Shown one piece after another: positions 2,940 through 55,326 of a stretch of 64,000 nt of DNA. The DNA is taken from NCBI GenBank assembly GCA_030588745.1, contig JAUUXB010000002.1, forward strand, positions 4,683 through 68,682. The letters are read 5' to 3'. The first letter of the stretch is position 1, and the number at the start of each line of letters is the position of its first letter. The stretch comes from a bacterium. GTDB taxonomy: Bacteria > Patescibacteriota > Minisyncoccia > Minisyncoccales > JANBVM01. Below the pieces are notes generated by a model. The model was not told where the DNA came from and did no database searches. It was given only the letters and a program-made list of their open reading frames with translations. The translations under genes were made by a program, and so were the position numbers.

Positions 2940-3644
2940 TTACTTAGCGATAGGTCTTTTCTTGTTTTTAAATGTGTAGAAAAGATATGCCACAATTCCT
3001 ATTCCTATAATCCACCCTAAAATAGATCCTTCACCGTTACCTTCTTTAGGAATTTCAGCAGTAAGTTCCTCTGGCGCTGGCAAACCTCTTTGTGGTGCTG
3101 GTGGTTGCTCGCTGGACTCTTCCTTAGCTGGTTGTTCTTCCTCGACAGCGGGCTCCTCGGTTGATTGTTTCTTATCCGGGGGCTGCTCCTCAATTGGTTC
3201 TGGCTTAACGCACTTACCATTAATTAGCTTGTATCCATAATCACACTCGCAACTCTTTGACAAGGTATCGTAGCTTGAATGAAAACCGTATCTATCATGA
3301 CAGTAAATATCAGTATCAATACATTCCCCTTCTGAAGCTATATATCCATAGTTACACTCGCAAGAATCAGAAGAAGAATTATAAGTGGAATGGCTAGGAC
3401 ACTTCGGCGTTGGTTTAGCAGGACACCTTGGATAATAGGGAGCACACTTTGCAGAGAGAGAAGTACCGTCGCAACACATATACCCAACATTAACACCATC
3501 GGGACATTGGTAGGTACAGACTCCACCGTGCCAAGAACAACAACCCCTTCTTGCTTCTACATTATTAATGGGTAATACAGTAAGAAGAAATGGAATAAGA
3601 ATTAATAATGATAGCAGTATCTTTTTCTTAAGTTTTTCTTTCAT
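2940..3644 (-). CDS. secreted Cys-rich surface protein with C-terminal membrane anchor
   Basis: Signal peptide ending VEA, RRGCCSWHGGVC motif, EGF-like CECNYGY/CECDYGY repeats, Pro/Glu linker, TM helix plus basic tail. Confidence 0.8.
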   Translation of the reverse strand: MKEKLKKKILLSLLILIPFLLTVLPINNVEARRGCCSWHGGVCTYQCPDGVNVGYMCCDGTSLSAKCAPYYPRCPAKPTPKCPSHSTYNSSSDSCECNYGYIASEGECIDTDIYCHDRYGFHSSYDTLSKSCECDYGYKLINGKCVKPEPIEEQPPDKKQSTEEPAVEEEQPAKEESSEQPPAPQRGLPAPEELTAEIPKEGNGEGSILGWIIGIGIVAYLFYTFKNKKRPIAK

Positions 3645-3729
3645 GAATGTTTCTCTATTTTTAGAGTAGCTCTATTTTTTATTTTTGCATTACCCAAAAA
3701 AGGAACATTAACTTTTGCATAATCCATCT

Positions 3730-6758: not shown

Positions 6759-7439
6759 TTAAAAACCGGCAAAAGTCCTGATTATATCAACAGGAACAAT
6801 GCTTACTATTCCCCAATAATCAATAGTTGCCAGACCCAAGAATTCACCTTTAATGTTAAATAAAGGACTGCCAACCATAGTACTTCTTTCAAGAATGTTT
6901 GTTGAAATCAGGTTTTTGTAAAAATAGGAAACAACCCCTTCATTAACTCCACGGGTAAATTCTTCTACTCCGTAAATTGTTCCAATTAAGAAAATTCTTT
7001 CTCCTGTTTTTATTTTGTTTAAATCAGCAAAACCAACTGTTGGTAAATTATTCTGTTCAAGTTTAATTAAAGCCAGATTATTAGTTAAATCTCTTTTTAA
7101 AATCTGATAAGGGGATGGTTTTCCTTCAACAAAAAATAAGAATTCAGAACCCTGAGGAACCAACTCAGCCAAAGTTACTATCAAACCATCTGAGGTTAGA
7201 ACCATTGCTGAGCCATTGAGTATTTTTTCTTTACTGGTTGTTTTAATACCAACAACTGTTTTTTCAACTTTTTCAACAGCGTTTTCAAGAGCAGTATTTT
7301 CCTCAATAATAATCTCTTTCCTTTCAGTAACATAAACAGGCCTTTCAATAAAATATGGCCAAATAAACTGATTAGCAAAAAGCCCTCCTAAAATACCAAC
7401 AACAAATATTGCTAAAACCTGTAAAACCTTTTTTTTCAT
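6759..7439 (-). CDS. trypsin-like (S1C/HtrA-related) membrane-anchored protein, catalytic motifs degenerate
   Basis: N-terminal TM; GSAMVLTSDGLIVT; STMVGSPLFNIKGE in place of GNSGGPL. Confidence 0.75.
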   Translation of the reverse strand: MKKKVLQVLAIFVVGILGGLFANQFIWPYFIERPVYVTERKEIIIEENTALENAVEKVEKTVVGIKTTSKEKILNGSAMVLTSDGLIVTLAELVPQGSEFLFFVEGKPSPYQILKRDLTNNLALIKLEQNNLPTVGFADLNKIKTGERIFLIGTIYGVEEFTRGVNEGVVSYFYKNLISTNILERSTMVGSPLFNIKGEFLGLATIDYWGIVSIVPVDIIRTFAGF

Positions 7440-7476
7440 ATAACTAAACAGAAATTCTTGGTCTTTTTCTTTGCTT
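7383..7476. repeat. ~90-bp direct repeat, copy 1
   Basis: CCCTCCTAAAATACCAAC...AAACAGAAATTCTTGGTCTTTTTCTTTGCTT, near-identical to 8304-8392. Confidence 0.85.
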
Positions 7477-7607
7477 TATTTCATTTATTTTTGAAACAAA
7501 CCTCATTGTTCTATAACTCTATATTAGATTTTTCTATAAATCTGTCAATTTTTATTCAATAAAAAAACAGTGCTATAATTTGGCACTGCCACGAATTAAT
7601 TATTAAT

Positions 7608-8303: not shown

Positions 8304-8392
8304 CCCTCCTGAAATACCAACAAATATTGCTAAAATCTGTAAAACCTTTTTTATATAATTAAACAGAAACTCTTGGTCTTTTTCTTTGCTTC
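8304..8392. repeat. ~90-bp direct repeat, copy 2
   Basis: Spans the clpB 3' end and a decayed copy of the protease gene start. Confidence 0.85.
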
Positions 8393-11064
8393 ATTTTAAT
8401 TAAATCTTTTGTACTTAAAAATATTATTTTCTCATTTTGAAAATCAATTACTACTCTTTTTTCTTTTTCAAAATCTCCAGAAATAATCTTTAAAGACAAT
8501 GGGTCTAAAATCTTTTTTTGAATCACTCTTTTTAATGGCCTGGCTCCTAAATTTGAGTCAAAACCTTTTTGAGCAACAAAGTCCTTAACCGACTCTGTAA
8601 TTTGAACATCAATATCTTTTTTCCCAAGTCTTTGAACAACTTTTTCAAGTTCAAGATTAACAATTTTCTTAATCTCTGGCTTGTTAAGATAATCAAAAAT
8701 TATGATTTCATCAATTCTGTTCAAAAACTCTGGCCTGAAATCATGTTTTAGGGCTGAAAGCACTTTTTCTCTTAAAGATTCTCTTTGCTTTTTTTCCTCA
8801 TCTCCGCCAATAAAACCTAGTGAAGCCTGCCGGGCAATAATATCACTTCCTACATTTGAAGTCATAATCAAAGTTGCATTTTTAAAAGAAGCTACTCTTC
8901 CTTTTGCATCAGTAAGCCGTCCATCTTCTAAAATCTGAAGAAGAATATTAAACACCTCTGGATGAGCTTTTTCAATTTCATCTAATAGTATTACACTATA
9001 CGGCCTTCTCCTTATCTTTTCAGTTAACTGACCGCCTTCATCATAACCAACATAGCCAGGAGGAGAACCTATCATTTTGGAAACAGTGTGTTTTTCCATA
9101 TATTCTGACATATCTAATCTGACCATTGCGTTTTCATCATTGAACAGGAAATTAGCTAAAGCTTTGGCAGTTTCTGTTTTTCCCACTCCAGTAGGCCCTA
9201 AAAACATAAATGAACCCAATGGCCTATTTTCCTCAGAAATTCCAGCCCTTGCCCGTCTAATAGCATTAGAAATTGCAAGAATAGCCTGTTTTTGACCAAT
9301 AACCCGCCTGCTAATAATGTTCTCCATTTTCTCTAGCTTTTTAACTTCTTTTTCAAGCAATCTTGTTAAAGGAATTCCTGTCCACCTTGAAACTACTTTA
9401 ACAATATCTTCTTCTGTTGCCTCGTCCTTTAAAAGAGGGTTTTTTCCCTGAATTCTTACTAATTTTTTCTCAGCACTTTTAAGTTCTTTTAAAAGCTCAG
9501 GGATTTTTCCATATTTTAACTCAGCTACTTTTTGCAAATTAGCTTCAGAAATCCCTTTTTCAGCTTCAAAGCGGGCATTTTCAATTTCTGATTTAATGGT
9601 TTTAATTTTTACAATCAAATCCTTTTCTGTTTTCCATTTAGTTTGAATTGCTCTTTGTCTTTCTGTTAAATCTGAAAGTTGTCTTGAGATTACTTTAAGC
9701 TTAATTTTGATTCCTTTTTCTTTTTTCAGAGCTTCTTGTTTAATTTGTAATTTATTAATTTCTCTTTTTAAATTCTCTAATTTAGAGGGTTCTGATTCAA
9801 TTTCCAATCTTAAAGCACTCATTGCTTCATCCATTAAATCAACTGCTTTGTCAGGCAAAAACCTGTCAGAAATATATCTAGCAGCTAACTGAACACAAGT
9901 GACTAAAGCAGAATCCTTGATTTTTACGCCATGATGAAGCTCATATTTTTCTTTTATTCCTCTTAAAATTAAAATAGTGTCTTCAATTGAAGGCTCTGCC
10001 ACATAAATTGGCTGAAACCTTCGTTCTAATGTCTGATCTTTTTCAATGTATTTCTGATATTCCTTTATGGTTGTAGCTCCAATTGCGCGCAGTTCTCCAC
10101 GAGCCAAAGCTGGCTTTAAAAGATTTGAAGCATCAATTGCACCTTCAGCAGCTCCTGCTCCAACCAATGTATGAAGCTCATCAATGAATAATAAATACTT
10201 GCCATCAGCCCTATTAATTTCTTTTATAAATGCTTTGATCCTGTCTTCAAATTCACCTCTATACCTTGTTCCTGCTATTAAAGCTCCTAAGTCCATTCCT
10301 ATCACCTCTTTATCTTTCAAGCTCTCAGGCACCTGACCCGTAATAATACGTTGGGCTAAGCCCTCAACAATAGCTGTTTTTCCAACACCTGCTTCACCAA
10401 TTAAAACCGGGTTGTTTTTTCTTCTTCGTGAAAGTATCTGCATTAACCTTCTTATTTCATTCTCTCTGCCAACTACTGGGTCGAGTTTGCCCTTTCTGGC
10501 TAAAGAAGTAAGGTTGCGAGCATATTTCTCAATTACCTGATATTTTGTTTCAGGTTTTGGGTCAGTAATTCTATGACCTCCTCTTAGCTTGGCTAGTTCA
10601 GTTGAAAATATCTGGTAATCTAATCTGCCGAACTGCAAAGAACCAACCTCTGTTTTTGGCTTTAAAAAACTGGCTTTATCCAAGATTTCTTTTGCTTTTG
10701 TATCAGCATCCAAAAGACCTAAGAATAAATGCTCAATAGAAATAAATTCATCTCCCATTCTGCTGGCTTCTTTTTTTGCTTTGTCTAAAATCTTTGCCAT
10801 ATCCTGAGTAAGATAAAGCTGGCCCAGGGTCCGAGGGGTAATGATTGTAGGAATCTTGCCCAAACTTAATTCTGTTTTTTTCTTTAATCCTTCAATGTCA
10901 ACACCAAGCCGTTCAAGAACATTTACAATAATACTTTCTGACTGCTTAAGCAAAACATAAAGTAAGTGCAAAGCATCAATCTGCTGCTGCTCTTTTTTTC
11001 TGGCTAATTCCTGGGCAGACATTATTGCCTCTTGGCTTTTATGAGTAAATTGTCCTCCGTTCAT
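8359..11064 (-). CDS. clpB: ATP-dependent chaperone ClpB
   Basis: Clp N domain, two AAA+ modules ([16 protein letters not shown]), long coiled-coil middle domain. Confidence 0.95.
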
Positions 11065-18192: not shown

Positions 18193-20331
18193 TTAAGCGT
18201 CGGTTAATGATTGCTTTTTTAATTTAAATTCTTTTCTCTCTTTCCACTCACGCTTTTTGCCGTCATTCCATTGTGACACGGGGCGAATGTAACCGACTAT
18301 CCTGGAATAAACCTCGCATGGCTGCTTGATAATGCATTTTGGACACTGAAAATGTTCTCCTGATAAATAACCATGAGAAGGACAAATTGAAAAAGTAGGA
18401 GTTAGGGTGATATATGGCAAGTGAAAGTTCTCAAACACTTTTTTAATCAATGTCTTAACAGTAGAAACATCAGAGATATTTTCACCCAAAAACAGATGTA
18501 AAACAGTGCCGCCAGTATACTTGCACTGAATTTCATCCTGAAGCTTTAAAGCTTCAAAAGCGTCAGTAGTATAATTAACCGGCAATTGGCTTGAATTAGT
18601 ATAGTAAGGCGTTTTTTCTGTTCCAGCAGCAATAATATCAGGATATTGCTCTTTATCTTTTAAAGCCAAGCGATAGGCAGTGCTCTCAGCTGGTGTGGCC
18701 TCAAGATTATAGATATTATTGGTTTCACTTTGGTATTTAACTAGTTTCTTCCTCATAAAATCCATTGTTTCTAAGGCAAATTTTCTTCCTTTTCGTGAAG
18801 TAATATCCGCACCAATGAAATTAAGCAAGGCCTCGTTCATTCCAACCAGTCCAATAGTTGCAAAATGATTAGCATAATAAGCATTTCTCATTTTTTTAAT
18901 ACTTTCCAGATAATATTTTGAATAAGGATAAAGGCCTTTTGTAATATAGTTTTCCAAAACTTTTCTTTTAATTTCCAAACTTTCTTTTGCCAAATTCATT
19001 ACTCTTTCTAGCCGCTTGAAAAAATCTTTTTTGGTTTTTGATAAATAGCCAATTCTGGAAAGATTGATGGTCACCACCCCTATTGATCCTGTAAGCGCTC
19101 CTGCGCCAAATAATCCTCCTCCGCCACGATTATGAAGTTCTTTCAAATCTAACCGAAGCCTACAACACATACTTCTAACATCCTCTGGCTTCATTTCAGA
19201 ATTAATATAATTAGCAAAATAATTAGTTCCATATTTTCCTGATGCCTTAAAAGCTAAATCATATGCAGGATCATCCCAGGGAAAATCTTTTGTAATATTG
19301 ATTGTTGGAATGGGAAAATGAAATGGTTTTCCGGTTTTATCTCCCTCAAGTATTATTTCATAAAATGCTTTGTTAAGGATCTTCATTTCTTCTTCAAATT
19401 CAGCATAAGTTTCTTTCTGGGGCTTGCCACCAATAATAACAGGCTGATTAGCAAAAGAAGGTGACGGTTTTAAATCAAGAGTAATGTTACTAAAAGGACA
19501 CTGAAATCCTACTCTTGTAGGAACAGCCATGTTGTAAAGAAATTCCTGAAATGATTGCTTAACCTGCTTGTAATTTAAATTATCGTAACGGATAAACGGA
19601 GCAAGCAAGGTATCAAAATTAGAAATAGCAACAGCTCCTGCTACTTCACCTTGAACTGTGTATAAAAAGTTTATTATCTGGCCCAGGGCAACTCTTAAGT
19701 GCTTTGCTGGTTTTGATTCTACTTTGCCTATTACTCCACCAAAACCTCTGATCAAAAGGTCATACAAATCCCAGCCAGAGCAATAAGTACCTAAAGTATC
19801 TAGATTATGAATGTGAAAATCCCCAGACCGATGAGCATCTCTCACTTCTTTGGAATAAACTTTATTGAGCCAATATCTTTTAATGATATATGAAACGCCG
19901 TAGCGATTCAGCCCCTGCAGAGAAAAAGCCATGTTAGCATTCTCCTGAACTTCCCAGTCAAGTTTCCCTAAATATTTATCAATTCTATCCACTGCTTCTT
20001 CGCTAACTTTCACTGCCTCTCTTATTCTTCTGCGCTGTTCTCTGTAAAGAATGTAAGCTTTAGCAGTTTCAACCAAGCCTTCTAAAATTAAAACTTCTTC
20101 AACAATATCCTGAATCTGTTCAACATGAGGAATTTCATCTTTTTTAAAGCGTCTGTCTAATATTTTAATTACCTCTTGAGTTAATTTCTTTGACTTGACG
20201 CCATCACCTTGGCCAGTAGCAGTAATAGCTTTAAAAATTGCATTGGAAATTTTTAAACCATCAAAATCAGTTATTGTCCCATCTCTTTTTTGAACCTTAG
20301 TAGTTTTACTTTTAACAGCTTGTTTAGTCAT
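18193..20331 (-). CDS. nrdD: class III anaerobic ribonucleoside-triphosphate reductase with ATP-cone
   Basis: VQKRDG ATP-cone, RSMCCRL, EATPAE, SRIVGY glycyl-radical loop. Confidence 0.95.
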   Translation of the reverse strand: MTKQAVKSKTTKVQKRDGTITDFDGLKISNAIFKAITATGQGDGVKSKKLTQEVIKILDRRFKKDEIPHVEQIQDIVEEVLILEGLVETAKAYILYREQRRRIREAVKVSEEAVDRIDKYLGKLDWEVQENANMAFSLQGLNRYGVSYIIKRYWLNKVYSKEVRDAHRSGDFHIHNLDTLGTYCSGWDLYDLLIRGFGGVIGKVESKPAKHLRVALGQIINFLYTVQGEVAGAVAISNFDTLLAPFIRYDNLNYKQVKQSFQEFLYNMAVPTRVGFQCPFSNITLDLKPSPSFANQPVIIGGKPQKETYAEFEEEMKILNKAFYEIILEGDKTGKPFHFPIPTINITKDFPWDDPAYDLAFKASGKYGTNYFANYINSEMKPEDVRSMCCRLRLDLKELHNRGGGGLFGAGALTGSIGVVTINLSRIGYLSKTKKDFFKRLERVMNLAKESLEIKRKVLENYITKGLYPYSKYYLESIKKMRNAYYANHFATIGLVGMNEALLNFIGADITSRKGRKFALETMDFMRKKLVKYQSETNNIYNLEATPAESTAYRLALKDKEQYPDIIAAGTEKTPYYTNSSQLPVNYTTDAFEALKLQDEIQCKYTGGTVLHLFLGENISDVSTVKTLIKKVFENFHLPYITLTPTFSICPSHGYLSGEHFQCPKCIIKQPCEVYSRIVGYIRPVSQWNDGKKREWKERKEFKLKKQSLTDA

Positions 20332-20399
20332 AATAATTACATTTTACTTCAACAAAAAAAAACGGTCAAATATCCAGTCAATTCAGTCAAAATTTTAAC

Positions 20400-20408
20400 T
20401 TATCCACA
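20400..20408 (+). promoter_or_regulatory. DnaA box upstream of nrdD
   Basis: Perfect TTATCCACA in the ftsZ-nrdD intergenic region. Confidence 0.55.
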
Positions 20409-20420
20409 GAGTTTAAAAAA

Positions 20421-21365
20421 CTAAAATCCTGTAACAATAACTGTTACTTTTATTTCTCCATTTCTTAGCTGTTCATCCTGAACAGCACCAAAAACAACTT
20501 TTGCTTTTGGATTGATTTCTTTTGTAATTAGTTTGCCAATTTCCTCAATTTCAAACAAAGATATATCCTCACCACCAGAAACATTAAATAAAACTCCTTT
20601 TGCACCTTTTGGCCTGATATCTAAAAGTGGAGAGCTTAAAGCAAGAGCTGTTGCCTCTAATGCTCTTTTTTCACCTTTGGCTGTTCCCATGCCAAAGAGA
20701 ACGCTCCCAGAATTTTTAAGAATTGATTTTACATCAGCAAAATCAATATTCACAATCCCTGGCAGCATAATCAAATCAGAAATTCCTTTAACCGCTTCTC
20801 TTAAAACATCATCACAAAGCCAGAAAGCATTAAGAAGCGAAGTTGTAGGGTCTAAACAATGAAGTAATTTGTCATTTTTAATCACTAAAAGCGCATCAAC
20901 TTTTTGTTGTAATAGCTTTCTGCTATTTTCCGCAATTTTCCTCCTGTAAACTCCCTCAAAGGAAAAAGGTAAAGTGGTAATTGCTACTGTTAAAGCACCT
21001 GTTTTTTTAGCAATTTGAGCAATGATAGGGCTAGCACCACTACCAGTTCCACCTCCCAGTCCTCCTGTAATAAAAATCATGTCAGCGCCTTTTAATGACT
21101 CATAAATTTTATCTTTACTTTCTTTTGCTGCTAATTCACCAACCTGAGGTTTCATGCCTGTTCCTAAGCCCTTGGTTATTTTTTCTCCTATTCTTAATTT
21201 CACATCAGCCTGAATCTTTTTTAAGTCCTGATAATCAGTATTCATTGCAATTAATTCAATTCCTTTAATTCTTGATTTTTTCATTCTTGATATGGCATTG
21301 CCACCTGAACCGCCAACTCCTACTACTTTAATATTTGTTGTTAATTTTTTAATCCTCTTTTTCAT
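20421..21365 (-). CDS. ftsZ: cell division protein FtsZ
   Basis: VGVGGSGGN, GLGGGTGSG, NIDFADV; ends at IVTGF. Confidence 0.95.
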   Translation of the reverse strand: MKKRIKKLTTNIKVVGVGGSGGNAISRMKKSRIKGIELIAMNTDYQDLKKIQADVKLRIGEKITKGLGTGMKPQVGELAAKESKDKIYESLKGADMIFITGGLGGGTGSGASPIIAQIAKKTGALTVAITTLPFSFEGVYRRKIAENSRKLLQQKVDALLVIKNDKLLHCLDPTTSLLNAFWLCDDVLREAVKGISDLIMLPGIVNIDFADVKSILKNSGSVLFGMGTAKGEKRALEATALALSSPLLDIRPKGAKGVLFNVSGGEDISLFEIEEIGKLITKEINPKAKVVFGAVQDEQLRNGEIKVTVIVTGF

Positions 21366-51465: not shown

Positions 51466-51610
51466 TTTGCTCCCCTAGTCGGTCTCGAACCTGTGGTTTA
51501 AAGGAAAATTAAGGGGTTTTCCAGGGTATCCCGCAATGCCTCTCGGTCGGGGCTCTTTTAAGCTAAAATGAGACAAATGAGACAGTGCTAAGGGGTATGG
51601 AAATTGTGTC

Positions 51611-52147
51611 TTATTTCTCAATTTCCTTAGCTAACTTTTCAAGCCCGAATCCATTTATTAATTCTATCTCTATGAGACTATCTTTAGCAAAAACTTTTCC
51701 ATCTTCTGTAAATTCACCAGTGGTGACAAAAAATCCTTTTTCGCCTTTTTCTTTGTTAAGATCTTGAATGGAACCAGCAAACTCTCTTACCTCTTTTGGT
51801 AGAACTTGATTTTTTCTTTTGCATTGAATAAAAAATCTTTTTCCATCCTTAAAGGCAATAACATCGATACCCTTATCTCCTGACCCACCAACCACTTTTG
51901 TTTTATATCCTAAACCCTCAAAGATAATGGCGACAATTCTCTCAAATTTTTTATGATTCATTGTTTTCCATTCAATCAATCTTTTGTGTTTCTTAAGCCA
52001 TTTTTCATCAAGCCATTTACTAATATATGACTTGGCTATGGAAATGACTACGGGGGTACTAAGTGCGATAACCCAAAACCACCAAAATGGTTTTATGAAA
52101 GTTATCCAAGGTGTTCTTATTGGTTCCGTATAATCAATGTGGATCAT
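51611..52147 (-). CDS. membrane-anchored Mrr-like restriction endonuclease
   Basis: N-terminal TM; FERIV...GDKGIDVIA...IQCKR...VTTGEFT. Confidence 0.85.
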   Translation of the reverse strand: MIHIDYTEPIRTPWITFIKPFWWFWVIALSTPVVISIAKSYISKWLDEKWLKKHKRLIEWKTMNHKKFERIVAIIFEGLGYKTKVVGGSGDKGIDVIAFKDGKRFFIQCKRKNQVLPKEVREFAGSIQDLNKEKGEKGFFVTTGEFTEDGKVFAKDSLIEIELINGFGLEKLAKEIEK

Positions 52148-52182
52148 TTTTTATTTTCTTAATTTTTTCTTTCATGGATTTT

Positions 52183-53064
52183 TCATTTTCCTATTTCAAT
52201 TTGAGAAGGGTTTTTTAGAATGATTTCCGGCCTGTCTTCATATTCCTTAATTTCACCCTTAATTCTAACTGTTTTTTGAGAATAATAGTCCTCTGGACTC
52301 TGAACAAACTTATATTGGTCTGAACTAAAAATTACACTAACAAAACATTGGTTAGGATATGATTTTTCGAAATTTAAAAAGACTGTATTAGTTTTTGATC
52401 TATAAGTATCAACAATCTTCCCCTCAATAATTATTTCTTTTCCTAAATAATTTCCTGCCTGACAAGCGCCAACAATTTTTAATCCTGTTAATTCAGAAGT
52501 TAATTTTTCCCATCGAAACCCAATCTTTTCATCTTCTTCTATTATTCTCTCGCCCCATTTACAGCCAACTTTATTTTCTATGGCTTCTCTTTCTGCTTGA
52601 GCGATTTCTTCTTTATACTTCACATCTTCTGGAGAGAAACGAGCCACCGCTAATCCTTCTTTAACCAATTCCAGACTAATATTCTGATCGCTAAGAAAAA
52701 CATATCTCAAATATCGACACCATTGATCTTGATCTTCTTTTCCTTTTTCTAATTTTACCTCTTTGTTTAAAATCAACTCTTCTAACGCCTGTTTGGCTTC
52801 TTCATAACAAGGATGTCCTCTTTCATCGGCATCAATTCCTAAAATTCTAACTGAATAACCCCCTTCTATCATAAAAGTATCGCCATCAATAACCTTAGTT
52901 GTTAATTTTAAGGCCATATCGGAAAGCTCAGGAATACTTACACAATTCCCATCTTCACCATTATGGTTTTTCTCTCGATTAGAAATTATTATCGCTCCTC
53001 CAATAATTAAGGCTCCGACAATAATTGCCAAGAATATTCTGTTTTGTTTAAAAAATTCTTTCAT
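52183..53064 (-). CDS. thermonuclease (SNase) with C-terminal OB-fold, membrane-anchored
   Basis: VIDGDT, VRILGIDADE, RYLRYV, LVKEGLA; C-terminal FLNFEK...GEIKEYEDRPEII; start at ATG 53064. Confidence 0.88.
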   Translation of the reverse strand: MKEFFKQNRIFLAIIVGALIIGGAIIISNREKNHNGEDGNCVSIPELSDMALKLTTKVIDGDTFMIEGGYSVRILGIDADERGHPCYEEAKQALEELILNKEVKLEKGKEDQDQWCRYLRYVFLSDQNISLELVKEGLAVARFSPEDVKYKEEIAQAEREAIENKVGCKWGERIIEEDEKIGFRWEKLTSELTGLKIVGACQAGNYLGKEIIIEGKIVDTYRSKTNTVFLNFEKSYPNQCFVSVIFSSDQYKFVQSPEDYYSQKTVRIKGEIKEYEDRPEIILKNPSQIEIGK

Positions 53065-53072
53065 TTTTAACC

Positions 53073-53861
53073 TTATTGATCCCAAATATCTTCTGTGAAA
53101 TTTAAAACTTTTACAATGGGCTTAATCCCTGCTTCCCTTATTATTTCTTTCAATATGGGTTGTTTAGAGATAAAGTTAGCCACTGGAGGACTACTTTTAT
53201 AATAAAATTTCACAAATTTCTTTCCTAAATTAGTTTTTAAAAGAAACGCATCTCTAAAATCTCTTAAAATATCAATTTCTGGAGCTAGCGGAGTTCCATA
53301 TGCGGCAGTGGCAATAAAACAACCTTCTTCGTCTCTGGATTCTGTTTTATATCGAGTATTAGCTTCCGAAGTAGATTCTCTCCAAAAACCCATTCCGAAG
53401 ATTTTTCCAGTATCTGTATCTTTCATAACCAAGAAATAAATTCTATTCCCGTCCTTCATTTTATAATACATAAGTATAGTTCCTAACCTTTCTTCAAGAT
53501 AAGGAGTTCTGCCCTCCACCCCTTCTTTTAATACATTCAACCCCCATATTTCATCTATTAAACTCAATGCAAATTGTGTCGTATTTTGTTCTGTCGGCTC
53601 CAAAAGAGGTTCAAAAGTTGCGCCATATTGACCTGTTTCCTCATTTTTACCTAGATACACATCAGCTAAACCATACCATTTTCCAAGGAATTGAATTTCT
53701 TCACTAACAGAAGAAGCGAAAACAGTCTCTTGTGACTTTATAGTGAATCCAGTTTGAGTTTTCAATCTGAAATCATTTAAGATGAGAATTATTAACAAAA
53801 CTAGCACAAAAATAATGCTTCCAAAAATTATTTTCCTATTTTTCTTAATTTTCTCTTTCAT
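53073..53861 (-). CDS. membrane protein with CFI-box-CTERM domain
   Basis: GCFIATAAYG...LRDFRD...FYYKSSPPVA. Confidence 0.85.
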   Translation of the reverse strand: MKEKIKKNRKIIFGSIIFVLVLLIILILNDFRLKTQTGFTIKSQETVFASSVSEEIQFLGKWYGLADVYLGKNEETGQYGATFEPLLEPTEQNTTQFALSLIDEIWGLNVLKEGVEGRTPYLEERLGTILMYYKMKDGNRIYFLVMKDTDTGKIFGMGFWRESTSEANTRYKTESRDEEGCFIATAAYGTPLAPEIDILRDFRDAFLLKTNLGKKFVKFYYKSSPPVANFISKQPILKEIIREAGIKPIVKVLNFTEDIWDQ

Positions 53862-53865
53862 AGAT

Positions 53866-54717
53866 TTATCCCGCTTTCTCTCTTAGCCCCTCGATCATAT
53901 ACTTTAAGATAAGACCAGAAAACGGCTCTTCATATTTTCTATCATCTATAGTAACAGTTAACTTTGCTAATTTTTCAGACCATATAAAATATTGCGTCTT
54001 TTGTTTTCTTTCTCTTCTTAACGCTATCCCATCACTGTATGAGTCTATAGAAATAATCTTGTCCAAATTCACGCTTAATGTCCTTTTTTGCCCAGTAAAA
54101 ACAATTCTTTTGTTCGTAAGGGTAAACATACCTTTGTCTATAACTCTTATTTCTTCGCGGGATTCACTTTTTGAACCAAAAGCCCCAACTCTAAAATAGA
54201 CTCCTTTTGCCACCCTAAAACTTGGACCACCATAACCACCACTACTTACTCTTACCGAACGTGGTTCTTTTAATGAAATATTTGGAAGTACACATCTAAG
54301 TTCTTCGTCCTTTTTTAAAAGGATAGGTGATGGTATCCCTATAAACTTTATAGGCGCTTTTCCTTCTCTTATTGCATTCATCCATTCTTCCATATCTGCT
54401 TCCTTTTGTTTAACATCTGACATTCCGCCATTGGCTATATTTTTCCATTCTCTCGCGGTTAAAGTCTGGTTTCTGTATTCCTGCCAAATTAGACTAGATG
54501 CGTCTTGAACTTTAGAAAGCTTATGCTTTTCTCCACGTCTAGCAAAGATTGCATCACATTTATTACACTCAAAACTCTTAATGGTTAGTAAGCCAAATAT
54601 CTTCTTCCTGATGGTTTCTATTAGTTGTCCAGACTTGCATACGGGGCACTTTGTAAGCCAAGAGGTTCCAATAGGATTACCATGGTCATTTAATGTTTTC
54701 TTAATTTTTTCTTCCAT
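53866..54717 (-). CDS. zinc-ribbon plus PH-like domain protein
   Basis: CPVC/CNKC; GGPSFRVAKGV; DKGMFTLTNKRIVF; likely start at ATG 54717. Confidence 0.7.
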   Translation of the reverse strand: MEEKIKKTLNDHGNPIGTSWLTKCPVCKSGQLIETIRKKIFGLLTIKSFECNKCDAIFARRGEKHKLSKVQDASSLIWQEYRNQTLTAREWKNIANGGMSDVKQKEADMEEWMNAIREGKAPIKFIGIPSPILLKKDEELRCVLPNISLKEPRSVRVSSGGYGGPSFRVAKGVYFRVGAFGSKSESREEIRVIDKGMFTLTNKRIVFTGQKRTLSVNLDKIISIDSYSDGIALRRERKQKTQYFIWSEKLAKLTVTIDDRKYEEPFSGLILKYMIEGLREKAG

Positions 54718-54721
54718 AGAT

Positions 54722-54952
54722 TTATTCATTAACACCATTTTTTCTTAGACACATTTTATAATAAACCTCGTAATCATCGAGCTTAAATTTACCTTCGGCA
54801 CAAGTAGTACATTTTTCAATAGCTTTTTCTACTGCTATATTATGACAATTAGAATAAATTTGTGATGGTCTTATCTAACACCAATAAAAAGCACCACCAA
54901 CGATTAAGATAATAATTGCTATCCACCAATATTCCTTAATTTTTTCTTTCAT
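54722..54952 (-). pseudogene. small membrane-anchored Cys-rich protein with an in-frame TAG at codon 26
   Basis: MKEKIKEYWWIAIIILIVGGAFYWC*IRPSQIYSNC...YYKMCLRKNGVNE; TAG at 54875-54877. Confidence 0.75.
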
Positions 54953-54972
54953 AGAGCTTTATGAAGTGCTTC

Positions 54973-55188
54973 TCAGTCAGAAGCCCCCTCTCTTATTTGT
55001 ATGACACAGGTTTGAATACAAGCACTTTTGTCGCTACTGCAATACTCATCACAACCGCACCTTCTTTTACATCTTTCGATAGGATCACCTGTGTATTTAT
55101 ACCAAATCAAATAACCAACAGTGATTGTTAGTGATAATAAAGATAAGGTAATAAGAATAAGGCAAATTATTTTGATTTTTTCTTTCAT
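54973..55188 (-). CDS. small membrane-anchored Cys-rich protein
   Basis: MKEKIK + TM + CKRRCGC...C...C...C. Confidence 0.75.
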   Translation of the reverse strand: MKEKIKIICLILITLSLLSLTITVGYLIWYKYTGDPIERCKRRCGCDEYCSSDKSACIQTCVIQIREGASD

Positions 55189-55326
55189 AGTGTTTCTTTA
55201 TCTTCAAAATAACCTTATTTAAAACAAAATTCAAGCCAAAATTAAAAACCCGATAAAGTCGGGTTGATAATGCTTCTCGGTCGCTCGAACCGAGCACTAG
55301 CCTGCTCCGGCGATAGGACTCGAACT

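Follow-up and report, generated by a model that had tools for sequence, protein, structure and literature searches.

Why should successive genes of one operon, whose proteins are mostly unrelated, begin with the same nucleotides? This question is raised by a six-gene unit in a 64-kb stretch of a Nealsonbacteria-like genome (contig JAUUXB010000002.1 of assembly GCA_030588745.1, positions 4,683 to 68,682; the whole stretch is referred to as the window). Ultra-small Patescibacteria have tiny genomes with very variable accessory islands, and the uptake and expression of foreign genes in these cells are poorly understood. An earlier note on this DNA had listed six gene starts that share one sequence, and had read the sequence as a possible recombination site for shuffling surface-protein cassettes while guaranteeing their translation. 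We find this interpretation partly supported. The shared start belongs to a short element of accessory islands in Paceibacteria. We favour the view, on which our confidence is evenly balanced, that it is a functional start or junction module whose copies double as exchange points.

A short element recurs at the gene starts of one unit

Searching the window for ATGRAAGARAAAATYAAR revealed five exact matches on the minus strand, with ATG positions from 52175 to 55188, against 0.01 expected; 0 of 100 shuffles reached five. The five copies lie on one strand, in the same orientation, at successive gene starts. They occupy five of the quoted positions (55188, 54952, 54717, 53861 and 52175). Both TAA-ATCT-ATG junctions claimed for the unit are read directly, at 54724-54715 for the 54717 start (copy 3) and at 53868-53859 for the 53861 start (copy 4). 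Copy 1 (ATG 55188) has AGAAACACT upstream in place of TAAATCT. The sixth quoted start, 53064, is not a member, as ATGAAAGAATTTTTTAAA at this position shares only ATGAAAGAA. The same start region is also matched beside an SNase-gene match in genome G020 (query 2337-2403, 81%).

The copy at 52175 was taken for a gene start. The motif is present there, but it opens a 13-codon open reading frame (ORF) in another frame. This ORF overlaps the real start of the next gene, an Mrr-type nuclease, at 52147 (MIHIDY). In genome G007, the nuclease start is kept, the homology begins about 9 nucleotides (nt) upstream, and the motif is absent. The first gene of the left-hand island was also said to begin similarly, and it does carry a diverged copy (ATG 3644), reading MKEKLKK followed by a hydrophobic stretch in a protein of 234 amino acids (aa). 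Together with this copy at 3622-3651, the 30-nt version of the element has six copies and forms the largest direct-repeat family of the window. A contig of the source run, assembled independently, spans 51963-55304 with 0 differences, so the arrangement of the copies is not a binning or assembly artefact.

The element is conserved as a nucleotide sequence

The element is a strand-specific unit of about 31 nt, AATAA-ATCT-ATGAAAGAAAAAATTAAG-AAAA, with the coding part ATG AAA GAA AAA ATT AAG. Its copies in relatives were found by pattern search, and related genomes are non-independent samples. Among 64 distinct copies, the flanks are conserved only at -5 to -1 (AATAA, 64-88%) and at +22 to +25 (AAAA, 66-88%) and then fall to background, giving the element sharp edges; the 22 positions between are conserved by construction of the search. 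The non-coding ATCT stands directly upstream in 8 of 17 contexts in relatives. The sixth codon is AAG in 14 of the relatives' 22 matches, compared with 21.5% of lysine codons in the host genome (p 2.5e-5, a value overstated because related genomes are not independent). As ATCT and a minority synonymous codon are both kept, the constraint appears to act on the nucleotides and not on the peptide alone.

The element is near-identical across families, while its flanks are almost never alike. Comparison of the 63 copies with enough flank yielded only 14 homologous pairs upstream and 10 downstream. This argues for purifying selection on the element, not for recent spread.

Several familiar kinds of signal can be set aside. 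Folding energies of the five window copies are 0 to -3.6 kcal/mol (z-scores of at least -0.12), no better than those of shuffles, and such unstructured copies rule out a hairpin or an attC-like site. A promoter is ruled out as well: no promoter-like site falls on any copy, and the unit as a whole has 13 such sites against 14.2 in shuffles. An Rfam scan of the window and contig C23 at gathering scores found tRNAs only and no other known RNA family.

Upstream of the ATG, the element reads AATAAATCT, without a Shine-Dalgarno core. Starts independent of this core are the norm in the host genome. A Shine-Dalgarno-like 4-mer at -18 to -4 precedes only 81 of 646 crude gene starts, which are greedy ORF picks, so that figures derived from them are rough. 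The commonest upstream tetramers in the genome are AAAT, AATT and TAAT. The element is a candidate for a compact Shine-Dalgarno-independent initiation signal.

Copies cluster in islands and in one group of genomes

The host genome comprises 626 kb in 30 contigs, with about 32% G+C. Exact ATGRAAGARAAAATYAAR occurs eight times in it, five times in the window and three times within 800 nt on contig C23. Allowing up to 2 mismatches gives 10 hits, of which nine fall into three island regions (contigs C2 and C23) and the tenth lies on C26. The earlier note had considered an AT-rich start bias, under which core gene starts would bear the motif equally often. This bias is ruled out, because all eight exact copies cluster in two islands and MKEKIK is the only hexapeptide start that occurs at least three times among the 646 gene calls.

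In 60 relatives, a degenerate pattern gave 22 matches against 5 for a reversed control. The 22-mer ATCTATGAAAGAAAAAATTAAG with at most 1 mismatch gave 67 matches in 44 of 401 genomes of the order, spread over many families (reversed control, 0). Most matches in any one genome were those of the host, with 7. The other genomes of the order that were searched hold 0-4 copies, compared with 8 in the host genome. A scan of 185,579 species genomes for exact copies returned 37 stretches. Nearly all of these are labelled Patescibacteria, Parcubacteria, Paceibacteria, Minisyncoccia or Nealsonbacteria, and a few are short contigs binned elsewhere. There were 0 exact copies in viral_contigs, and a viral origin was dropped on this ground. 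The element is thus confined to one group of genomes, with several copies of one orientation per genome at the starts of different gene families, and it can serve as a sequence tag for finding such islands.

Copies open grafted genes or stand as orphans

Of the 64 distinct copies, 34 open a long ORF in frame, and 30 are orphans with an ORF of at most 35 codons. An upstream ORF of at least 50 codons abuts 28 copies, most commonly through the junction TAA-ATCT-ATG (12 copies). A Pfam family was matched in 9 of 29 in-frame products, the scan covering 29 of 33 and the remainder being either covered by the window protein scan or an orthologue. The families are trypsin-like and S49 peptidases, HEPN/AbiU2, an AAA_33/zeta-like kinase, GNAT, a DnaA-like ATPase, macro and DUF2752. 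An N-terminal hydrophobic segment is found in 18 of 32 in-frame products and is absent from 14, which does not bear out the claim that the cargo consists specifically of surface proteins. The proteins beyond the shared start are mostly unrelated, as had been stated; the 54952 gene is an exception, as it and the first gene of the C23 island are paralogues (45% over 42 aa, E 8e-9).

Comparing cargo genes with their homologues revealed the element as a replacement of native N-termini. Searching with residues 12-283 of the 283-aa zinc-ribbon protein (copy 3) found 134 relatives, and 0 of the 119 listed, the window's own protein excluded, start with M[KE]EKIK. Most of the listed homologues begin with an extra zinc ribbon, MKVKCPKCGF..., and copy 3 occupies the place of this N-terminal ribbon. 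The nearest genomic relatives belong to unclassified bacteria, Atribacteria, WOR-3 and a methanogen. Similarly, the closest relatives of the C23 GIY-YIG gene beyond the genus come from Nitrospirota and Zixibacteria; these start with MNLRRDIKS where the Nealsonbacteria protein has MKEKIKI-PKEIISLY. With homologues of two cargo genes free of the motif, the alignments indicate that it is a graft onto foreign genes. In some fusions, the motif is followed by the native ATG or by a few retained leader codons (MKEKIKK-MRTSII, MKEKIKKIRNFTK-MDIKIR); the element's side of the junction is therefore fixed, and that of the cargo varies. A conserved start module grafted in this manner would explain how new genes are translatable without evolving signals of their own.

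The orphan ORFs have 7-32 codons and no conservation after MKEKIKK. For 19 of the 30, 26-60 nt separate the motif ATG from the start of the next long ORF, which often overlaps the orphan stop or lies a few nt from it; this spacing is compatible with translational coupling, and short distances would give the same result anyway. The proposal that the shared start guarantees translation fits these 19 orphans and the grafts. In a few orphans, a terminator-like hairpin or promoter-like hexamers follow instead of a gene. The last copy is an orphan both in the window and on C23. As roughly one copy in two is an orphan, automatic gene prediction will place starts wrongly or report spurious peptides at these sites.

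Two further patterns are seen at individual loci. At L005/L096, L080, L081 and L013 (2071), the orphans read MKEKIKK-stop with a second (A)TCTATG start immediately behind it, so that the junction looks duplicated. In other genomes, at L072, L085 (6308), L098 and L101 (7458), a second conserved stretch of about 40 nt (ATAGTGAGTAGCAGGGTGGGGTAAAATAA...) lies directly before the element. What follows is a small protein family, MKEKIKKILFxIAExGTVxWA, in L072 and L085 and an orphan copy in L098 and L101.

Homology breaks at the edges of the element

The clearest comparison is between contig C23 of the host genome (G000) and genome G001 of the same genus. They share a block of about 96% identity, which runs from about 15 nt before one copy, through the GIY-YIG gene, to the last base of the next copy. 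On both sides of this block, the sequences are unrelated and contain different genes. In the all-versus-all comparison of 400-nt flanks, 12 pairs of copies are homologous upstream only and 8 downstream only. In all three pairs whose homology reaches the element (two G000/G001, one between G181 and another metagenome-assembled genome), it stops at the element's edge. The expectation that homology in relatives breaks exactly at the motif is therefore borne out in 3 of 3 informative between-genome comparisons, a small sample.

A start module whose copies may serve for exchange

We propose that the element would supply a stop for the preceding gene, then a spacer of 4 nt and an ATG, followed by six codons that are A-rich and unstructured, together making a ready-made Shine-Dalgarno-independent site where ribosomes start or restart. 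Incoming island genes would land directly behind a copy. Fused genes would gain MKEKIK(K) in frame, and unfused genes would retain a start of their own, from a few to about 35 nt farther on, with the copy left as a short upstream ORF. This function would keep the copies nearly identical. As the copies are the sole identity between unrelated neighbours, they could serve as points of gene gain, loss and replacement, and the exchange may proceed by homologous or short-homology recombination. Because the element is unstructured, promoterless, without a linked recombinase and conserved while its flanks differ, we think that it is kept for expression, probably for Shine-Dalgarno-independent initiation or reinitiation. 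To judge from the sequences, genes swapped in are probably translated at once via the element. That the element drives translation and that recombination occurs within it is what we infer from these data.

Several points weigh against this proposal, most of them against its exchange step. The breakpoints coincide with gene boundaries, where they are expected anyway, and come from three comparisons in two genome pairs. Each of the five copies in the window deviates by 1-2 bases, giving no sign of recent exchange among them, and their identical stretches are short for RecA-type recombination. No joint between copies is listed in the run contigs, a set of assembled contigs only. A related strain (run X2) has genes 2-6 in the same order; its contigs leave 54884-55151 without cover, a gap that carries no evidential weight. 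Other contigs match only 52147-52181 with unlike flanks and are element copies in other community members. The orphans before a hairpin or promoter-like hexamers are unexplained by a pure translation role.

The search for an enzyme gave a similar picture. The genome has one tyrosine recombinase (a single PF00589 match, outside the window on contig C26) and one large serine recombinase, both on other contigs. Among 140 neighbouring proteins of copies in other genomes (140 of 241 ORFs scanned; E 1e-5 for HNH and GIY-YIG), there is no member of the recombinase, transposase, HNH or GIY-YIG families. Serine recombinase homologues occur in 21 of 44 element-bearing genomes and in 146 of 357 others, which shows no association. 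The complete genomes G001 and G007 have copies and no serine recombinase homologue at E 1e-10 or better. A linked recombinase is rejected on these grounds: other contigs, no match among the 140 neighbours scanned and no association across genomes. The reading of the shared start as a recombination or cassette site thus gains the breakpoints at the element, whereas the exchange step itself is put forward with no linked recombinase and no joint between copies in contigs.

These results bear on four other explanations. The element could be a signal for translation or regulation only, either an optimal pad for initiation or an operator through which a translational repressor or a small RNA would control acquired genes, with the breakpoints reflecting whole-gene exchange. 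Consistent with this, it always contains the ATG and always has the direction of the downstream gene, with 34 of 64 copies in frame and 19 more having a long gene 26-60 nt behind the ATG. It is also unstructured and linked to no recombinase, and its conservation across families whose flanks differ points to purifying selection on the site. We nevertheless consider a signal alone unlikely. It gives no account of one 31-nt sequence before dozens of unrelated genes, some from other phyla, for which a joining process at the 3' edge is needed; orphans ahead of a terminator-like hairpin or promoter-like hexamers have nothing to translate; and no candidate regulator was identified. Alternatively, the element could be the dedicated site of a site-specific recombinase, integron-like and containing the start codon, behind which promoterless and startless ORFs are inserted. 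It is sharply bounded at about 31 nt and near-exact across families, its junction is constant while the 5' end of the cargo varies, and the same-orientation arrays, nested in tRNA-anchored ones, have orphans among them, including the last copy in the window and on C23. The element has neither dyad symmetry nor a hairpin, in contrast to attC, dif and typical att cores. No integrase lies nearby, the two recombinases of the genome being on other contigs; none of the 140 neighbours scanned is a recombinase; the serine recombinase shows no association with the element, and G001 and G007 carry copies without a homologue at the threshold given above. We regard such a site as improbable. Equally improbable to us is its extension to a gene-capture system of an undescribed kind in Paceibacteria, in which a trans-acting enzyme would insert promoterless and startless ORFs, in frame or coupled, directly behind a recombination site that contains the translation start. 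If it were true, genes from foreign phyla would be expressed without delay in a cell where Shine-Dalgarno sequences are little used, and the orphans would be empty or terminal sites of an array.

Shared ancestry would make the cargo genes diverged paralogues, or carriers of a duplicated signal-peptide n-region, as in multigene surface-protein families. Two small membrane peptides are true paralogues (the 54952 and C23 pair; L054), and the hydrophobic segment right after MKEKIK(K) in 18 of 32 products fits a positively charged n-region. The 14 products without such a segment, which include GNAT, macro-domain and P-loop kinase proteins, speak against it, as do the motif-free homologues of two cargo genes, the 30 of 64 copies that start no long ORF, and the conservation of a non-coding ATCT and a minority synonymous codon. 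A surface-protein family with a common signal peptide is largely refuted by this evidence from hydrophobicity, homologues, orphans and codons, and we hold common descent to be very improbable. We give almost no credence to the idea that the element is a target or by-product of the island homing endonuclease genes. On C23 and in G001, the GIY-YIG gene lies between two copies, and HNH genes are adjacent to copies on C23 and in the window's left-hand island. Elsewhere, 0 of the 140 neighbours scanned from 241 ORFs match HNH or GIY-YIG at E 1e-5 or better, and most copies flank other genes.

Comparison with known systems

The closest parallel to the proposed start and exchange module is found in the promoter-early stem-loop (PeSL) cassettes of T4-type phages (Arbiol et al. 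2010, PMC2839356). In that paper, PeSLs are expression signals that lie in a single orientation between non-essential genes in hypervariable regions; the insertions, deletions and replacements that distinguish close relatives map to the repeats, and mini-circles are shown. The element resembles PeSLs as a short conserved signal, repeated in one orientation, to whose copies the breakpoints of relatives map (3 of 3 pairs, a small sample). On the other hand, a PeSL consists of a promoter and a terminator hairpin, whereas the element has neither and holds the start codon and six codons that enter the proteins. PeSLs belong to phage genomes and the element to bacterial chromosomes, and mini-circles are shown for PeSLs only. 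If recombination at the element is true, the PeSL principle of an expression signal doubling as a shuffling site would be extended from phages to cellular genomes.

A second parallel is the start-associated sequences (SAS) of Cluster K mycobacteriophages (Pope et al. 2011, PMC3203893), described as 13 bp long, 3-7 bp upstream of the start, with an AGGAG core. Both are asymmetric repeats of one orientation at the start codons of different gene families in one genome group, with a presumed translational role. Unlike the SAS, the element is about 31 nt long, lacks a Shine-Dalgarno core, includes the ATG and at least 18 coding bases, and is often an orphan.

Among the publications returned by our literature search, none describes such a start module in Patescibacteria. 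The element shares some features with cellular gene cassettes.

The attC sites of integrons are imperfect palindromes of 57-141 nt, located 3' of the ORF and recombined as hairpins, and integron arrays without an integrase exist as clusters of attC sites lacking integron-integrases (CALINs). Like these arrays, the unit has same-orientation genes bounded by a repeated site and accessory cargo mostly of unknown function. The differences are that the element is 31 nt long, unstructured and at the 5' end of the ORF, and that no IntI was found, with one PF00589 match genome-wide, on C26. In the Mycoplasma surface-lipoprotein loci vsa and vpma, DNA inversion by a dedicated recombinase moves one promoter among silent paralogues. 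What they have in common with the element is a short conserved stretch that numerous otherwise dissimilar genes of one locus carry at their 5' end or close to it; in vsa and vpma, this stretch is used for recombination. The element differs in that its copies form direct repeats, that the genes concerned are not paralogous, and that no recombinase was found linked to it.

Organization of the unit and its island

The unit (Table 1) encodes, in order, the 71-aa peptide, a related 76-codon peptide with an in-frame TAG, the 283-aa zinc-ribbon protein, the 262-aa membrane protein, SNase and the Mrr_cat nuclease. No Pfam family was matched by the 262-aa protein (53861).

Table 1. Positions, in window coordinates, of the element copies, the genes without one and the island boundaries
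Feature	Position	Strand	Description
Element copy 1	55166..55195	minus	ATG 55188, reads cactATGAAAGAAAAAATCAAA; in-frame start of 71-aa Cys-rich membrane peptide, first gene of unit
Element copy 2	54930..54959	minus	ATG 54952, reads ctctATGAAAGAAAAAATTAAG; starts 76-codon gene of small membrane/Cys protein
Element copy 3	54695..54724	minus	ATG 54717, reads atctATGGAAGAAAAAATTAAG; in-frame start (MEEKIKK) of 283-aa zinc-ribbon protein
Element copy 4	53839..53868	minus	ATG 53861, reads atctATGAAAGAGAAAATTAAG; in-frame start of 262-aa membrane protein
Element copy 5, orphan	52134..52182	minus	ATG 52175, reads atccATGAAAGAAAAAATTAAG; 13-codon ORF to TGA 52136-52134
Diverged copy	3622..3651	minus	ATG 3644, ATGAAAGAAAAACTTAAG; 87% of 30-nt reference
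Six-gene unit	51611..55188	minus	All genes on one strand, gaps of 4-20 nt
Gene 5 of unit	start 53064	minus	293-aa membrane-anchored SNase, PF00565; own start, no element copy
Gene 6 of unit	start 52147	minus	178-aa Mrr_cat nuclease, PF04471
Left island boundary	55275..55325	minus	23-nt copy of tRNA-Asn 3' end and GGCTAGTGCTCGGTTCGAGCGACCGAGA
Right island boundary	51469..51553	minus	GCCCCGACCGAGAGGCATTG ... GGTTCGAGACCGACTAGGGGAGC, then terminator-like hairpin 51462-51440

The TAG of the 54952 gene lies at 54877-54875, after 25 codons, and the frame stays open for 50 codons beyond it. This TAG aligns with a Gln of the C23 paralogue (FQWRP) and also, by eye, with a Gln in the N-terminus of the L054 homologue (FQIRP). 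The source-run contig has the same TAG at 54875-54877. It could be a recent CAG-to-TAG change, a site of read-through or a variant.

The left boundary of the island comes directly after the glycyl-tRNA synthetase gene, with a terminator-like hairpin at 55265-55247. The same pair of boundaries is common to islands on C2, C21 and C23, with a terminator-like hairpin after each boundary; the C21 island is without the motif, and the left-type boundary on C23 follows a real tRNA-Asn gene. Repeats that resemble tRNA 3' ends (GTTC.A....GGAGC) occur on the minus strand at 55325, 51490, 51089, 50525, 49611 and 6112, most of them followed by a terminator hairpin. They split the region after the glycyl-tRNA synthetase gene into small units, one of which includes a cold-shock protein gene, and the six-gene operon is the first unit of this array. 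The tRNA-tail repeats bound the units. The element is unrelated to them in sequence and lies inside a unit, at gene starts.

In an X2 contig of depth 37, the left boundary is joined to sequence immediately ahead of the right one (51575/55277), skipping 3701 nt, with 34 nt on the shorter side. This contig is probably from a related organism and may represent an empty or differently filled site there. Within 1.5 kb of 57 copies in other genomes, a tRNA-Asn-type boundary pattern taken from the host genome gave 8 hits at 7 copies, compared with 5.4 hits expected; other tRNA tails may be in use there. By eye, 9 nt of the right boundary were complementary to the motif; this match is not conserved on C23 and was dropped.

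The copies in other genomes have recurrent neighbours, namely SNase (3), DUF6804 (4), HEPN-type (3), NYN (2) and parts of restriction-modification and toxin-antitoxin systems. Their neighbourhood is an accessory setting rich in defence and nuclease genes.

Some minor features of the islands are also noticed. On C26, a boundary-like repeat and a 2-mismatch copy of the motif (13282, 14292) lie about 6 kb from the sole tyrosine recombinase gene (20127-21128). At L015 5850-6100 (G007), a 45-codon fragment of the Mrr-type nuclease gene is cut off by boundary-like sequence. A recurring CTCATTTGTCT(C/T)ATTTT stretch immediately precedes the right boundaries on C2 and C21 of G000 and also comes before this fragment. 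Two gene starts in the window's left-hand island, at 7432-7487 and 8347-8402, share a 56-nt direct repeat with 89% identity.

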